UHGV virus genome: UHGV-1555203
Origin: a virus
Length of the DNA: 10,147 nucleotides
Direction: 5' to 3' (one strand)
Below the pieces are notes generated by a model. It had not been told where the DNA came from. It was given only the letters and a program-made list of their open reading frames with translations, and did no database searches. A program made the position numbers and the translations under genes. Positions 2,929 to 8,438 of this stretch are shown in pieces (the first letter of the stretch is position 1; each line of letters begins with the position of its first letter).

Positions 2929-3225
2929 TCACTCCTGTTCACTGGCCTCTTTGGCCATCTTCAAATACTGTTCAGGGCAATGCGCCATAACGCGCTGAAA
3001 CAGTTCCAGCGCCAGATTGCGTTGCCCCTCATTAAATGCCATTGCCATAGCGTCCATCGGTGAGATAGCGGAAAACACACGGCCTTTCTCCAGCACCGAC
3101 CAGACAACGCGACGCCCCTGTTCACTGCTCATGACAAAGCGAATGTCATCAATTTCACGCTGTGCCATGTCACGTTGCTTACGGGCGTTTTCTTCTTTCA
3201 GTTGATCGTCTTCGTAATCTGTCAT
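2929..3225 (-). CDS. Hypothetical head-morphogenesis protein (98 aa)
   Basis: ORF-track 2929..3225; its ATG overlaps the portal stop (ATGA overlap at 3222..3225), implying translational coupling. No family recognised. Confidence 0.55.
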   Translation of the reverse strand: MTDYEDDQLKEENARKQRDMAQREIDDIRFVMSSEQGRRVVWSVLEKGRVFSAISPMDAMAMAFNEGQRNLALELFQRVMAHCPEQYLKMAKEASEQE

Positions 3226-4901
3226 TGTGATTGCCCACCCTGACCACTAACTGCATTCGCCATAGCTGACAAAACACTCGGATCCGAAGTTTTAGCTTCG
3301 CTTAGCGTCTTGGCACCCTGTGCCGCCGCCATCCCCATCGCCATCATTTGTTGCTGCTGTTGTTGCTGTGCCCGTTGCTGGCGAGCCTGCTCAACCTGTT
3401 CCTGCGGAACAATGACGGTTGGAGACACTCCGGACATATCAGCGAATGCATCGATCGCCTGATCAACGTTGAGTTTGTCGAGAGCTTCTGGTTTCGCTTG
3501 CGCAAGTTGACCAATGAAGTTAACCGTGGACGCCAGACTGGACAGGCCGATAGACTTCTGCGCCTGAGCCATGACGGAAATGTATTCGACCTTCAGGGGC
3601 ATGCCTTCCATCGCGTCAGGCGGTGGCGGCAGCATGTTTTTACGCACCATCATCGAGAAAGAGCGATCAATGAGAGGATTAAGACATTCGTCGTTCAGGC
3701 GCTCCAGAACCGGCCCCAACATCAGAAGTTTTTCTTCTTTCATTTCGATCACCGCTTCCACAGGCATCGAGCGGGTATTGATGTTCTGCAACATCATGAA
3801 CAGATCGACAAAGTAGGCGCTGTTAATGATTTGACGAGTGTCCTGAATGTCTGCCACCAAATCTGCTGTACTGGGGTTAACCAGATAAGCAGGCCTGAAA
3901 CCATCCTGACCAGTAATCTGATCGATATACGTGATGTCGCCAGGAAGAAGGGAGGCACGCTGATTCTTGAGGGAATTCGGAGCAACCATCGGCGGATTGG
4001 TGGCTTTATCAATCAACTGCGACTTGCGCTTCTGGAGAAGCTGCAATGCCTTAACAGGTCCAAGCGCCAGCATACCCGGGCATGATGATCCATAAACATC
4101 TTCGCCGTTAACTTCCCAGCGCGGGGCCATAATTGGAAACTCATCGAATCCGGACTCACGCAACAACTTGTCGTTATCGCCACCAACCTCGTAATAAACC
4201 GATTTGAATGGCTTGTTCTTGCTATCCAGCTTCGATGTATCGCGGTCAATGTTCGGGTAAACCGAATGCATCACTTCAATCCACTTCTCGTAGGTTCCGC
4301 TTTCCCACATGCTTTTTACGGATTCGCTGACGTTATTTAGCCCGAACTCCTGAACAAGCTGACGAACAGTCATAGAGAACTTGCGAAAACAGGTGTCCAC
4401 ACTGCCACGAGGTGAGTTAGCCAGGTAGTAACTGCCTATCGGGAATGGCATTGTGCGAATGATGTCCTCGTCATCCTCCAGCACTGCCATTGCACCAGTG
4501 CTGTATGTGCCGAGGCTTCCGTATAACTGCGGCAGCGACTGATAGAGATTCGACTTATTGAACATATCGTTCATGCGGTTCTGCACCGCCTCAAGCCACA
4601 ACTTAACAGGGCCATAATCCATCATTTCAGGATCTGGCGTAGCCAGGCGAAACCACGGACGCGCGGGGCTTGTGATGCCTGACATCATGCCGCTGGCGAG
4701 AGTGCGCGCCGCCATAGTCCCGGTCGAATCAATAATGCGTGTATTGCGTCGATCGTTACGGTTAACCTCAGAAGCCAGAAAGCGGGAACCACGCGGGTTG
4801 ATGTAATCACTCAACTCGCGCCAGTGCGGCTCGAACGACTGACGCTCGCTTTCAAGTTGTGCGAACTGTTTGTTCAATCGCTCTTTAGTTGTTTCCGCCA
4901 T
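3222..4901 (-). CDS. Portal protein (559 aa)
   Basis: ORF-track 3222..4901; GGAG 8 nt upstream of the ATG; size typical of portal proteins; first large gene after the terminase large subunit; C-terminal Gln-rich tail. Assignment is by synteny and size, not by a search. Confidence 0.7.
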   Translation of the reverse strand: MAETTKERLNKQFAQLESERQSFEPHWRELSDYINPRGSRFLASEVNRNDRRNTRIIDSTGTMAARTLASGMMSGITSPARPWFRLATPDPEMMDYGPVKLWLEAVQNRMNDMFNKSNLYQSLPQLYGSLGTYSTGAMAVLEDDEDIIRTMPFPIGSYYLANSPRGSVDTCFRKFSMTVRQLVQEFGLNNVSESVKSMWESGTYEKWIEVMHSVYPNIDRDTSKLDSKNKPFKSVYYEVGGDNDKLLRESGFDEFPIMAPRWEVNGEDVYGSSCPGMLALGPVKALQLLQKRKSQLIDKATNPPMVAPNSLKNQRASLLPGDITYIDQITGQDGFRPAYLVNPSTADLVADIQDTRQIINSAYFVDLFMMLQNINTRSMPVEAVIEMKEEKLLMLGPVLERLNDECLNPLIDRSFSMMVRKNMLPPPPDAMEGMPLKVEYISVMAQAQKSIGLSSLASTVNFIGQLAQAKPEALDKLNVDQAIDAFADMSGVSPTVIVPQEQVEQARQQRAQQQQQQQMMAMGMAAAQGAKTLSEAKTSDPSVLSAMANAVSGQGGQSQ

Positions 4902-5190: not shown

Positions 5191-5219
5191 TTGACATTTA
5201 ACGCACAAATTATTACCTT
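5191..5219 (+). promoter_or_regulatory. Candidate sigma70-type promoter for the plus-strand cassette
   Basis: Perfect -35 TTGACA (5191..5196), 17-bp spacer, -10-like TACCTT (5214..5219; weak, but T1, A2 and T6 present); embedded in an AT-rich block; inverted repeat TTACCT-TTC-AGGTAA (5213..5227) overlaps the -10. Confidence 0.4.
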
Positions 5220-5549
5220 TCAGGTAACAAAAGAGTTCATTCCGGTTACTAACCTGACTGGCTTGTCGTTAAATTGAACAGGTGGAGTGAGCTTTTATTT
5301 TGAGCAGTACGGCGTATGGCACATGCGCCGATAGCGGTCTGGATACGTTTAAGGGGCACCCTCCCTGGCTGTGGCAAACGAACCAGGTAGCCGGAATGTG
5401 CAAGTCGAGCGGTTTTATTCCGCGCACGGGGATTCACCATCCCGGCGATTCGGTGTGACGCCTCGGAAGAGACGAGGGTACAACGATGAGAGCATTTATG
5501 GAGCCGCGACAAAGTGTGGCGCCTTAACAGGCTAAGTGCTCTCAGCGTT

Positions 5550-5626
5550 GTGGCATTAGCTCAGTTGGACAGAGCAACCGCCTTCTAAGCGGTTGGTCGC
5601 AGGTTCGAATCCTGCATGCCACGCCA
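5550..5626 (+). tRNA. tRNA-Arg, anticodon UCU (reads AGA), 77 nt including encoded CCA
   Basis: Hand-folded cloverleaf: acceptor GTGGCAT/ATGCCAC (7 bp, perfect), D-arm GCTC-AGTTGGACA-GAGC, anticodon stem ACCGC/GCGGT with loop CTTCTAA (anticodon TCT), variable TGGTC, T-arm GCAGG-TTCGAAT-CCTGC, discriminator G, CCA. Close to E. coli argU-type tRNA but with different acceptor and anticodon stems. Confidence 0.9.
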
Positions 5627-5669
5627 GAATCACGCCTAAGGACCGTGATGCCAGAAGTTCCAGGTGCTT

Positions 5670-5711
5670 GGCGGTGATAGTTTCCCTTGAAGGACTATCA
5701 CCGCCCTTTTT
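5670..5711 (+). terminator. Intrinsic terminator downstream of the tRNA
   Basis: Perfect 12-bp stem GGCGGTGATAGT / ACTATCACCGCC with a 12-nt loop, followed by CTTTTTA. Confidence 0.6.
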
Positions 5712-5789
5712 ACAGCAGGACGCCATTGCGATGACTTCATGCTGTAAACCCGTACAGCCACGGAAGGCATAACTCATTGCTTCCAGTTC

Positions 5790-5812
5790 GCCCGGTTCGC
5801 CGGGCATTTTTT
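5790..5812 (+). terminator. Second intrinsic terminator / attenuator hairpin abutting the RBS of the 139-aa ORF
   Basis: GCCCGG-TTCG-CCGGGC (6-bp GC stem, UUCG loop) followed by A-TTTTTT, then AAGGTGAG (SD) and ATG at 5824. Confidence 0.55.
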
Positions 5813-5823
5813 AAGGTGAGATC

Positions 5824-6243
5824 ATGAAGACAATTGATATGTTGGCTAAGTATCTAAATGAATGGCCATTAAAATATTCTCGTATCGTTCAGGCTGAAGA
5901 CTGCATTTTTTATGGCGTTTTTGCTGGTAATGAAATGCATTACGAAGTAATTCAGAGTGAGGGACTGGCCGGGTTAACTCTTAGCGAAGACCATGGTACT
6001 AGCGTTACGTTCCATGACTGGATAACAGCACAACGTTCTGAAATGGAAAAAGGCGATGTTTTTGATATTTCTCGCGCTGTTTACGCTAAAGCAAAAAGTG
6101 ATAATGATTACATGAGCGAACACTTATACAACATGAAGTTACAATGCCTGCATGCGGCGCTTATTCAGAATGGGCACTTCGATAAAACAAGTGCCATCAA
6201 TATTGCGGAAGCCATCAACGCTGGATTTAATGCCATTAAGTAA
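5824..6243 (+). CDS. Orphan hypothetical protein (139 aa), moron-type accessory gene; no family recognised
   Basis: ORF-track 5824..6243; strong SD AAGGTGA 6 nt upstream of ATG; visibly AT-richer than flanking phage genes; opposite strand to all neighbouring genes; followed by palindrome and terminator. No TM segment or catalytic motif evident. Confidence 0.7.
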   Translation: MKTIDMLAKYLNEWPLKYSRIVQAEDCIFYGVFAGNEMHYEVIQSEGLAGLTLSEDHGTSVTFHDWITAQRSEMEKGDVFDISRAVYAKAKSDNDYMSEHLYNMKLQCLHAALIQNGHFDKTSAINIAEAINAGFNAIK

Positions 6244-6247
6244 CACC

Positions 6248-6259
6248 GTGACATGTCAC
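6248..6259. repeat. Perfect 12-bp palindrome GTGACATGTCAC, copy 1 (second copy at 8699..8710)
   Basis: Exact self-complementary 12-mer with shared 5' flank TAACACC; lies 5 nt after the stop of the 139-aa ORF and before its terminator. Confidence 0.8.
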
Positions 6260-6263
6260 AAAC

Positions 6264-6290
6264 AGCCAGCCGATGAGCTGGCTTTGTTTT
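6264..6290 (+). terminator. Intrinsic terminator after the 139-aa ORF
   Basis: AGCCAGC-CGATGA-GCTGGCT stem-loop followed by TTGTTTT; a second hairpin ATCCTC-ATCA-GAGGAT follows at 6291..6306. Confidence 0.6.
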
Positions 6291-6333
6291 ATCCTCATCA
6301 GAGGATATCAACGACATTATCCCCACCAGCGGA

Positions 6334-7809
6334 TTAAGCATATGGATCGTAATCTGTGATGGCCTTGCCTTGCTGGTTCTGCTGCCCGGGAATTCGCAGA
6401 CGCTTCGACACAGGGAACGCAAACGTCAGCAGTAGCGCATCGCCTTTACCAGGAGAACGCCCAAGCCGCTCCTTGATATCTTCCTTCGGTTCGATAACGA
6501 TTTTACCGTCCACTCGAACTTTGTACTCTGCCGCAGACAGGTCGTCCGCTGTTTCCTGGTCATCCAGCATGCCGCCCAGCCTCAGCCATGTCTTGCATGA
6601 GTTGAACATCTCCCCACGCTTGTTGAGCATCTGCGGGTCAGTAGACGCGCCACCGAACGGAACAAGTTGCCATGTACGACCCCAGCCATCACCGATTGAC
6701 TTCAGACCAGTTCCGTAACCGAAGTCGATGAACACTGCGTCAGCCTGGTACTGGTCTTCAAAGTCAGCGATACGCTTCGCCATAATCAGATCGTCAGTGG
6801 TCTTGTTGCCAGTCCACAGCACCTTACTGTGCAGCCCCTGCCGCAGGTATATCACAGCGTCATCAACGCCGGAGTATGCCGGGTCAACGCCGATTATCAC
6901 CGGAGCATGTGCAACCTGCGCAGCGGTTACCACCCGTTTCATTGCCTCGTCAGTAAGGCCGGTAGGGATAAACTGCAATTCAGATGCATCCGGGAATATG
7001 CCGCGCACACGGATTTTAACGAAGTCGCTGTCTTCCCCGTAGTCATCAACCCATTTCTGCAACTGCTGTTTGTTAGTGCCTTCCACCGTCCGGCTGTCAA
7101 TCTGCGCAGTTTTCCAGCGGTGTTTATATTTGCGGAAACATTCGCGAAAACGCCCGGTGTTACGTGTAGGGTTTCCGAACGCCACCCAGATAATCTCAGT
7201 GTCTTCGTCCGTAAGCGCACCCTCAGCAACTTCCCACACCAGATCCGCAATGTTCGACGCTTCATCGAATACCACGATGATGCGTTTGCGCTCGTTGTGT
7301 AGTCCGGCGAATGCCTCAGTGTTGTGCTCAGACCAGGGTATTGCGTCAGCCCGCCACCGCTTGTCGTGCCCAGGGTCATTGCTGTACATCGCGGTAGCGG
7401 TACAGGTAAACCAGTCTTTCGTGATAGCAAGGTTCGACCACTTGATAATTTCCGGCCAGGTCTTCGTTCGTAGCTGGTTGTCGGTGTTGGCGGTCACCAC
7501 GACCTTACAATCCTCGCAAGTGGACATGCCCCAGTTGATCAGCATTGAGATGAATGCGGATTTACCAATACCGTGACCAGAAGCGCGTGCCAACATAAGC
7601 GGCTGATAGCGCGTCTCTGGATTCTGCAGGTGATCACGTATCTCTCGGAACGCATCAGCCTGCCACTGACGTGGGCCGGTAGCATGTGCCAGTTCAGTCC
7701 CCTCTTCCCCCCACGGGAACGCATAGAGGGCATAGCCAAGCGGATCGTGAGTGAACCCTGCAATATCCTCGATTAACTGCTCTTCAGGAGATAACGCTGT
7801 ATCTGTCAC
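6334..7809 (-). CDS. terL: Terminase large subunit (491 aa), GTG start overlapping the terS stop
   Basis: ORF-track 6334..7809; deviant P-loop GHGIGKS, Walker B-like IIVVFDEAS, C-terminal nuclease-type acidic motifs (VIIGVDPAYSG...DDAV); GTGA start/stop overlap with the upstream small subunit gene. Confidence 0.9.
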   Translation of the reverse strand: MTDTALSPEEQLIEDIAGFTHDPLGYALYAFPWGEEGTELAHATGPRQWQADAFREIRDHLQNPETRYQPLMLARASGHGIGKSAFISMLINWGMSTCEDCKVVVTANTDNQLRTKTWPEIIKWSNLAITKDWFTCTATAMYSNDPGHDKRWRADAIPWSEHNTEAFAGLHNERKRIIVVFDEASNIADLVWEVAEGALTDEDTEIIWVAFGNPTRNTGRFRECFRKYKHRWKTAQIDSRTVEGTNKQQLQKWVDDYGEDSDFVKIRVRGIFPDASELQFIPTGLTDEAMKRVVTAAQVAHAPVIIGVDPAYSGVDDAVIYLRQGLHSKVLWTGNKTTDDLIMAKRIADFEDQYQADAVFIDFGYGTGLKSIGDGWGRTWQLVPFGGASTDPQMLNKRGEMFNSCKTWLRLGGMLDDQETADDLSAAEYKVRVDGKIVIEPKEDIKERLGRSPGKGDALLLTFAFPVSKRLRIPGQQNQQGKAITDYDPYA

Positions 7810-8409: not shown

Positions 8410-8438
8410 GTGGTAATAGTTACCGTTGTGGTAATAGT
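8410..8438. repeat. Tandem direct repeat GTGGTAATAGT (x2, 18-bp period) immediately upstream of the terS start
   Basis: Exact 11-mer at 8410..8420 and 8428..8438; on the coding strand reads ACTATTACCAC-N7-ACTATTACCAC ending 8 nt before the ATG. Confidence 0.7.

Follow-up and report, generated by a model that had tools for sequence, protein, structure and literature searches.

The window analysed here is a stretch of 10,147 nucleotides from the virus genome UHGV-1555203, to which all positions refer unless another locus is named. Its subject is a 139-amino-acid open reading frame (ORF), here ORF139, which begins directly behind an intrinsic terminator that we call T2. With a probability of roughly 0.55, we favour the reading that ORF139 is accessory cargo in a swappable slot of Uetakevirus phages, that it is transcribed by read-through in the lytic phase and that it probably acts in counter-defence. 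We infer its function from context alone, and on our analysis a counter-defence protein appears more likely than a toxin. The window is an Escherichia coli prophage of Uetakevirus (epsilon15/phiV10) type. ORF139 is antisense to its neighbours, on the plus strand between the large terminase gene and the gp3/portal genes and downstream of a gene for tRNA-Arg(UCU). The resulting island starts with a conserved promoter and the repressor operator that overlaps it; a structured non-coding RNA (ncRNA), tRNA-Arg(UCU), a terminator T1, an inverted repeat, T2 with the Shine-Dalgarno (SD) sequence, the cargo ORF and a terminator T3 follow in this order (Table 1).

An exchangeable cargo slot between constant flanks

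Alignment of the window with phages phiV10 and PAS61 gave near-identity up to the ATG of ORF139, hairpins and SD included, and again from the TAA onward. In phiV10, an unrelated 123-amino-acid ORF occupies the slot between the same flanks. Viral contigs were scanned with the 23-mer of T2, which returned 120 loci, nearly all of the same synteny, and a census of the cargo covered 123 related loci. The Acb4 family (PF13876) accounted for 49 of them and a transmembrane (TM)/coiled-coil protein with its own promoter for a further 24. ORF139-family genes were found in 16 loci, another N-terminal domain on the same C-terminal module in four, the C-terminal module alone (61-68 amino acids) in four, Tad2-like proteins (PF11195) in five and the Acb2/Tad1 hairpin domain (PF24729) in one; the remaining cargo includes Zn-finger-like, SPFH-like and bactofilin-like proteins. 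Across the 123 loci, at least 15 unrelated cargo types stand behind one junction. PF13876 is the Acb4 anti-CBASS sponge family (10.1101/2024.12.30.630793; 10.1101/2025.07.12.664507). Slot cargo of known function is anti-defence throughout, with no toxin or abortive-infection (Abi) protein among it.

Variable cargo between constant flanks in close relatives marks the slot as an accessory region, and the known anti-defence genes in its cargo (Pfam PF13876, PF11195 and PF24729) mark it as an anti-defence hotspot. The left junction (T2, U-tract and AAGGTGA) and the right junction (TAA, GTGACATGTCAC and T3) were kept, and the ORF between them was swapped precisely. In one locus (L119) the slot is empty, and no cargo separates T2 from a T3-like hairpin; here ATGTCACAA of the right flank, which is the right part of GTGACATGTCAC, follows the U-tract of T2 and two A residues. 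The slot is flanked by convergent terminators, T2 ending the rightward ncRNA-tRNA unit and T3 the terminase genes. Judged from these comparisons, the abutment of terminator and SD is a property of the slot and not of ORF139. The TM/coiled-coil cargo (phrog_4780, 201-292 amino acids, e.g. L004, L007, L022, L058 and L095) has a promoter-like ATGACC-N17-TATAAT of its own, which contains the repressor palindrome and lies just after T2. That this cargo carries its own operator-bearing promoter past T2 speaks for a block of transcription at T2 and for membership of the slot cargo in the repressor regulon. Literature searches aimed at this hotspot and at phrog_4846, the family of ORF139, found no description of either.

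Conserved terminators and their junction with the SD

A sequence-only reading of the window had placed a hairpin followed by AUUUUUU one nucleotide before the SD of ORF139, with a second strong terminator upstream and no convincing promoter between the two. Direct reading confirmed the hairpin and its U-tract; the distance from the U-tract to the SD is, however, 0 nt. The second terminator, T1, was borne out with a 14-bp stem of -23.1 kcal/mol (z = -6.7), and sits 78 nt upstream of T2. T2, with six G-C pairs and a UUCG loop, folded with -12.7 kcal/mol (z = -3.3) and T3 with -13.0 kcal/mol (z = -3.4), where z compares the folding energy of the hairpin with that of shuffled sequence. Both T1 and T2 have the stable G+C-rich hairpin of an intrinsic terminator and a U-tract 3' of the stem, consisting of A and U6 in T2 (U6-8 in relatives) and of C and U5 in T1; in neither is the first base past the stem a U. 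The AGGUGA of the SD is complementary to UCACCU at the 3' end of the 16S rRNA.

By itself, a terminator consensus scan of the window was no better than chance (12 sites vs 10.3 expected), and the case for the terminators therefore rests on conservation. The junction of T2, U6-8, AAGGTGA and ATG was found again in more than 100 related loci, and the SD motif is kept ahead of many unrelated cargo ORFs. In front of ORF139-family genes of other genera T2 reads GCCCAC-TTCG-GTGGGC, with the U-tract and SD the same. This variation represents two compensatory pairs (GG/CC to AC/GT), and in an alignment of 15 sequences 95.6% of the cells of the T2 stem were paired, vs at most 48% with the partner columns slid; the compensatory changes probably stem from few independent events. 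The stem of T1 likewise differs compensatorily across diverged lineages. Database annotation agrees with these assignments, as a rho-independent terminator is entered on the cargo strand at the T2 homologue in the GenBank record of epsilon15, and the record of phiV10 assigns the T3 hairpin to the terminase strand as its terminator. As far as such sequence comparison can tell, the hairpins T1 and T2 are under selection.

The spacing of the two terminators differs among phages. In PAS61 and in L161/L162-type loci, 33 nt equivalent to 5758-5790, between the inverted repeat and T2, are deleted; the deletion is bordered by GCC microhomology and brings T2 to 46 nt after T1. PAS61 is plaque-forming and has an intact ORF139 homologue directly behind T2 despite this deletion. 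Epsilon15 has a deletion of the 5' arm of T1, which leaves T2 as the only terminator ahead of its Acb4 homologue.

No sigma-70-like promoter was found by consensus scan on the plus strand between 5000 and 6700, and the earlier statement that there is no convincing promoter between the terminators also stood up to direct reading. TTTACA (5709-5714), considered as a -35 element, has no -10 at the correct spacing and is one arm of the conserved inverted repeat. When both strands were inspected by hand, TTTACA, TTGCGA, CATAAC and TGnTGTAAA between T1 and T2 had no workable partner as promoter elements. A promoter in this interval is further disfavoured because PAS61 deletes part of the region, and the GC-rich T2 hairpin leaves no space for a -10. 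Any mRNA with the SD includes T2 or starts inside T2. As the gene appears to lack its own promoter and transcription that reaches its SD must have passed T2, plus T1 in this lineage, dependence on read-through or antitermination is a sound expectation. The conditional expression proposed in the sequence-only reading is upheld to this extent, but the arrangement is common to a slot with many unrelated ORFs.

A candidate upstream promoter overlapped by the repressor operator

The only conserved promoter that feeds the slot, the candidate P(+), lies about 600 nt upstream of the cargo ORF. The spacer sequence is variable among 16 diverged loci that all keep TTGAC(A/C/T), the 16-nt distance and the palindrome, and the same geometry of -35 and operator is also present in epsilon15. 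P(+) was missed by the consensus scan, as its -10 fits just 3/6 positions. The TTGACA-N16-palindrome pattern suggests a promoter whose -10 is overlapped by an operator. That the palindrome TTACCTTTCAGGTAA is the operator of the phage repressor is indicated by its distribution. Eight exact copies are present in phiV10 (L124) vs 0.04 expected, every one of them intergenic and at the head of a transcription unit, and the repressor gene has copies to its left and right. Epsilon15 (L209) has three palindrome sites on each side of its repressor gene; in its record, the left-hand three carry the label 'repressor; lysogeny', as does the island site. Because the sole conserved promoter is overlapped by the repressor operator, the island unit should be silent in the lysogen. 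Sequence comparison hence points to a repressor-controlled rightward unit that would be active after infection or induction.

Within the window, the 15-bp palindrome TTACCTTnAAGGTAA is present at 5213-5227 and 8420-8434. Almost all transcription units of these phages start with it, mostly just past a terminator, and 15 sites with at most one mismatch are found in epsilon15 (L209). PhiV10 and epsilon15 use the identical palindrome despite divergent repressors, which share 42% identity (PMC9782041). Two other readings of the island site were rejected. TTACC-N5-GGTAA had been considered as a boxB/nut-like RNA hairpin; the conservation of its loop is that of an extended 7+1+7 DNA palindrome, and epsilon15 annotates repressor sites. 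A leftward promoter on the same operator has no conserved -35/-10, while the rightward TTGACA is invariant.

ORF139 and its protein family

The sequence-only reading had called ORF139 an orphan. This did not hold, as the protein matches phrog_4846 end to end (E = 2e-89), which is its only match in PHROGs and a family without assigned function. The family comprises 103 clusters at 90% identity in Enterobacteriaceae (E. coli, Salmonella, Citrobacter, Klebsiella and Leclercia). It is a narrow one, as a set of 1.84 billion proteins contains 28 of its representatives at 50% identity, and a genome-contig scan yielded two Citrobacter loci only. Wherever the context was available, family members lie behind the same T2 and SD junction, and the one long contig that was checked (L126, Leclercia) has the complete portal-to-terminase synteny around the ORF139 homologue. 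At least two plaque-forming phages, HEMP4 and PAS61, carry intact homologues.

The ratio of nonsynonymous to synonymous substitution rates (dN/dS) of ORF139 was mostly 0.1-0.4 (29 other alleles computable, dS up to approximately 3); two near-identical pairs were exceptions with values above 1, and two pairs with a dS of 0 gave no ratio. The reading frame was intact in 34 distinct alleles. By these measures ORF139 is under purifying selection. Its G+C content is 39-42% vs approximately 52% in the flanks, and the whole protein has an isoelectric point of 5.2.

An AlphaFold monomer model with a deeper alignment (predicted local distance difference test score, pLDDT, 83.8) has an alpha/beta domain at the N-terminus (residues 1-76), which a disordered linker joins to a helical hairpin at the C-terminus (residues 93-137). 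Searches with the whole protein, with each domain and with the stand-alone C-module proteins gave no Pfam match at E<=10, searches of PADLOC and of PDB sequences (phmmer/profile) gave no match for ORF139, and fold comparison of the model gave no informative match. Comparison with the sponge families Acb4, Tad2, Acb2/Tad1 and Sequestin revealed neither a profile match nor a fold match to solved structures.

The C-terminal helical hairpin (residues 90-139, window 6091-6240) is a mobile module, as observed in loci L062, L089, L019, L038 and L046. Two alternative sequence versions of it occur within phrog_4846. It is joined to an unrelated N-terminal domain in proteins of 123-126 amino acids and stands alone in the slot as proteins of 61-68 amino acids, and longer C-module fusions add another C-terminal domain (P0012, P0110).

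Proposed expression of the island and alternative explanations

In the model that we favour, RNA polymerase would start near 5226 from P(+) and make the upstream RNA and the tRNA. The unit would be off in the lysogen via the repressor operator and on after infection or induction. Most transcription would stop at T1 and T2, and the fraction that reads through would carry the cargo ORF; T1 and T2 would thus act as attenuators that keep cargo mRNA below the level of ncRNA and tRNA. The U-rich leader and the AGGUGA of the SD should allow efficient translation of the mRNA that gets through, and T3 would end the transcript before an antisense run into the terminase genes. By guilt by association, the probable target of ORF139 is a host defence, countered early in the lytic phase. 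Its helical hairpin may be a shared oligomerisation or functional module and the N-terminal domain may be the part that confers specificity.

Several points weigh against this model. Tandem canonical terminators could cut read-through to approximately 1%, which would fit stoichiometric sponge proteins poorly. The candidate -10, TACCTT, matches 3/6 positions, and conservation is the one line of evidence for the putative promoter. Guilt by association is not clean, as the slot also holds cargo without an assigned role (the TM/coiled-coil protein in 24 loci and the Zn-finger-, SPFH- and bactofilin-like proteins). ORF139 itself has no likeness in sequence or fold to any known sponge or anti-defence protein and, at 139 amino acids, exceeds most sponges in size. 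An extension of the model, which we regard as possible though doubtful, is that phrog_4846 founds a new phage counter-defence family, maybe of signal sponges or inhibitors that combine an exchangeable N-domain with a shared C-module, and that the whole antisense island is a dedicated early counter-defence unit in which read-through of T1 and T2 sets or times the dose of cargo.

The requirement for substantial expression of sponge cargo behind canonical terminators is one motive to consider active antitermination, in which a phage factor, or the upstream RNA in cis like HK022 put, overrides T1 and T2 in lytic growth. A conserved structured RNA does lie between promoter and terminators, and the layout of promoter, T1, inverted repeat, T2 and cargo is kept in lineages without the tRNA. 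However, no nut, put or Q-like element was recognised, and the boxA-like TGCTCT is a strand of a covarying helix. A processive form would also override T3 and transcribe the antisense strand of the terminase genes. At its other operons the phage starts afresh from an operator-bearing promoter after each terminator instead of relying on read-through, and epsilon15 lacks most of the structured RNA yet still has T2 and cargo. We therefore regard this explanation as unlikely. It is rather improbable that T2 serves chiefly as an RNA end-protection or processing boundary, with a ncRNA-tRNA-mRNA precursor cut by RNase P, E or III and the cargo mRNA as the processed product. A tRNA in the same orientation upstream and the RNase III site predicted in the leader by the epsilon15 record would suit this explanation, and E. 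coli is known to co-transcribe tRNAs with mRNAs, as in the tufB operon. A hairpin with a conserved U6-8 is, however, the signature of termination beyond mere stability, and processing would still require read-through, so that it refines the favoured model instead of replacing it. A promoter outside the sigma-70 consensus, dependent on an activator or phage factor and located between T1 and the SD, is very unlikely to drive the cargo. The 40-nt inverted repeat after T1 is more conserved than its surroundings, and ATTGCTTCCAG upstream of T2 is kept in several lineages. Yet polymerase that starts anywhere ahead of T2 would still run into it, the gene is kept in PAS61-type phages that lack 5758-5790, neither consensus scan nor direct reading gave a -10/-35 pair at workable spacing, and the interval from the inverted repeat to T2 differs among lineages.

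The sequence-only reading had taken ORF139 for a toxic or tightly controlled prophage effector of the Abi, toxin or exclusion type, kept near-silent by the two terminators. The lack of a promoter and the two upstream terminators are compatible with such an effector, the low G+C content suggests a foreign origin, and the TM/coiled-coil cargo of the slot could be an exclusion factor. Comparison with the slot as a whole does not support this proposal, which is quite improbable. ORF139 has no match in PADLOC, Pfam or PDB sequences, and the same junction precedes the anti-defence genes of the Acb4, Tad2 and Acb2/Tad1 families, in keeping with the anti-defence nature of the known cargo. The operator-bearing promoter that feeds the slot would be off in the lysogen, exactly the state in which an Abi or exclusion gene has to be expressed, and two plaque-forming phages have intact homologues. 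Finally, ORF139 might be an unexpressed passenger that decays in a neutral site, since a position between convergent terminators makes insertions harmless and there is no promoter. This is extremely unlikely in view of the dN/dS of 0.1-0.4 (dS to approximately 3), the intact frame in 34 distinct alleles, the conservation of SD and spacing, and a family that spans several genera.

Other elements of the island and distribution of the region

Upstream of the tRNA, the island contains a conserved structured RNA without an Rfam match at E<=10 in the window, and none was found in two homologous loci. Homologues of 70-82% identity are present in diverged loci, and a lambdoid Stx2c phage has one as well. 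RNAalifold predicted 36 pairs, six of them with compensatory changes. The invariant blocks ACGGCRTATGGCACATG, GGTAGCCGGAATGTGCAAG and CACCATCGTGGCGATACGGTGTGACACCTCGGAAGAGACGAGG are separated by variable hairpins. The homologue in the Stx2c phage (L208:2988-3240) has its own TTGACA-N16-CATAAT promoter and a T1-like terminator, and the 3 kb to each side of it contain no tRNA gene. On the minus strand of the same phage (L208:775-963), approximately 2 kb upstream of the ncRNA homologue, Rfam models for C4 antisense RNA and isrK matched above the gathering score. A boxA-like TGCTCT(T/C) at the end of the leader was rejected as such, being one strand of the covarying helix.

The tRNA-Arg(UCU) is approximately 82-84% identical to the tRNA-Arg of Stx phages. 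AGA codons are absent from ORF139, both terminase subunits and the portal, protease, capsid and gp3 genes, and because these genes contain no AGA codon the tRNA is not a codon supply for them. A counter-defence role of the tRNA is conceivable.

The inverted repeat behind T1 is near-invariant in loci whose flanks have 70-80% identity and holds an inner palindrome, CATTGCGATG, at 5724-5733. Its half-sites differ independently at one position. From its sequence, a protein site appears to fit better than an RNA stem. Epsilon15 (L209 2559-2950, minus strand) has no tRNA here and lacks the 5' arm of T1 and the greater part of the structured RNA; it retains T2 with an Acb4-family cargo gene (p50), along with the inverted repeat and the operator-bearing promoter. 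The epsilon15 record predicts sites for IHF and RNase III in the leader.

The structural genes of the window (small terminase, large terminase, gp3-like, portal, protease and major capsid protein) all lie on the minus strand. The 1-kb region around ORF139 is 99.9% identical to the chromosome of E. coli strain N25. When 5400-6400 was used as a 1-kb query, at least 80% of its length was present in 78 of 5426 complete E. coli genomes, and some portion of it in 900 of the 5426 (approximately one-sixth).

Table 1. Positions of the island elements and flanking genes in the window
Feature	Position	Strand	Basis or remarks
Portal gene	4901..3222	-	Beyond the gp3-like gene, left flank
gp3-like small protein, 68 aa	4916..5122	-	Conserved left flank of the island, portal next
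Candidate -35 of P(+), TTGACA	5191..5196	+	Conservation at fixed distance from the operator
Operator of the phage repressor, 15-bp palindrome TTACCTTTCAGGTAA	5213..5227		Overlaps the candidate -10
Candidate -10 of P(+), TACCTT	5214-5219	+	17-nt spacer; 3/6 match
Conserved structured ncRNA ('leader')	5302..5549	+	Adjoins the tRNA on its upstream side; homologues, RNAalifold
tRNA-Arg, anticodon UCU	5550..5626	+	ARAGORN; Rfam 73.3 bits
T1, 14-bp stem 5670-5705, then CTTTTTAC; U-tract side CUUUUUAC	5670..5713	+	Folding, compensatory variants
Inverted repeat TTTACAGCA-N22-TGCTGTAAA	5709..5748		Immediately after T1, near-invariant
T2, GCCCGG-UUCG-CCGGGC (stem-loop 5790-5805), A5806, U6 (5807-5812)	5790..5812	+	Direct reading, folding, covariation
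SD, AAGGTGAG	5813..5820	+	Sequence reading; 4 nt from AGGUGA to ATG 5824
ORF139, 139 aa, phrog_4846 member	5824..6243	+	ORF reading, PHROGs, model, dN/dS
Right-junction perfect 12-bp palindrome GTGACATGTCAC	6248..6259		Right boundary of the cargo
T3, hairpin 6264-6283, then TTTGTTTT	6264..6291	+	After the cargo, faces the end of the large terminase gene
Large terminase subunit	6334..7809	-	Conserved right flank; so annotated in the corresponding records of E. coli and phages

Relation to known systems

The slot resembles the accessory regions and anti-defence hotspots described for phages, in which a short stretch between core genes holds differing small, fast-evolving genes in close relatives (10.1101/2023.04.06.535777); anti-CRISPR and anti-defence genes also cluster in mobile elements. 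Several of the slot genes belong to proven anti-defence families (Acb4, Tad2 and Acb2/Tad1). The slot differs from these hotspots in its orientation, antisense to the structural operon, in that it mostly contains a single gene, and in that it has a fixed ribosome-binding site (RBS) junction behind a terminator, fed by a repressor-controlled promoter via the ncRNA and tRNA. With the sponges (Acb4/PF13876, Tad2/PF11195, Acb2-Tad1/PF24729 and Sequestin/PF21825) ORF139 shares the slot and the RBS junction. It is also alike in being small and soluble, in belonging to a phage-restricted family and in its modular domains, with an all-helical C-module of 61-68 amino acids that stands alone. In contrast, ORF139 has no sequence or fold match to the sponges and is larger than most of them.

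A likeness to morons is also evident. The moron concept reportedly goes back to work on the lambdoid phages HK97 and HK022 by Hendrix and colleagues, and a classical moron comes with a promoter of its own and in many cases is active in the prophage state. ORF139 is similar in its deviant G+C content, in its presence between core genes in some relatives only and in the terminator T3 that follows it. It differs in having no promoter of its own (none from T1 to the ATG by scan) and in that the feeding promoter carries a repressor operator.

Partial terminators inside operons are known from T7 T-phi before genes 11-12, the rplL-rpoB attenuator, T1 of rpsU-dnaG and lambda tR1. As in these systems, an intrinsic terminator inside the unit would lower the expression of a downstream gene that depends on read-through. 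Here, however, there are two in tandem, the second abuts the SD (0 nt) and the upstream products are RNAs. In the late region of Stx phages, with the order PR'-tR'-tRNA genes (ileZ-argN-argO)-stx, antitermination by Q is established. By a looser parallel, the island too has a phage tRNA-Arg and accessory cargo downstream of a promoter-proximal terminator that would have to be passed for the cargo to be expressed, but no equivalent of Q, qut or nut was recognised here and the similarity is confined to the tRNA-Arg itself.

Near-identical phages that differ by one small gene, often a proven anti-CBASS or anti-Thoeris sponge, represent a natural experiment, and ORF139, its C-module relatives and the other unassigned cargo families are directly testable counter-defence candidates. 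The island also holds an undescribed structured RNA. The fixed terminator-RBS junction raises the question of how proteins presumed to act stoichiometrically are made behind tandem terminators. Measured against these systems, ORF139 is on sequence grounds best placed as accessory cargo of a known kind, that of a counter-defence hotspot, behind a terminator-RBS junction that is unusual and conserved.

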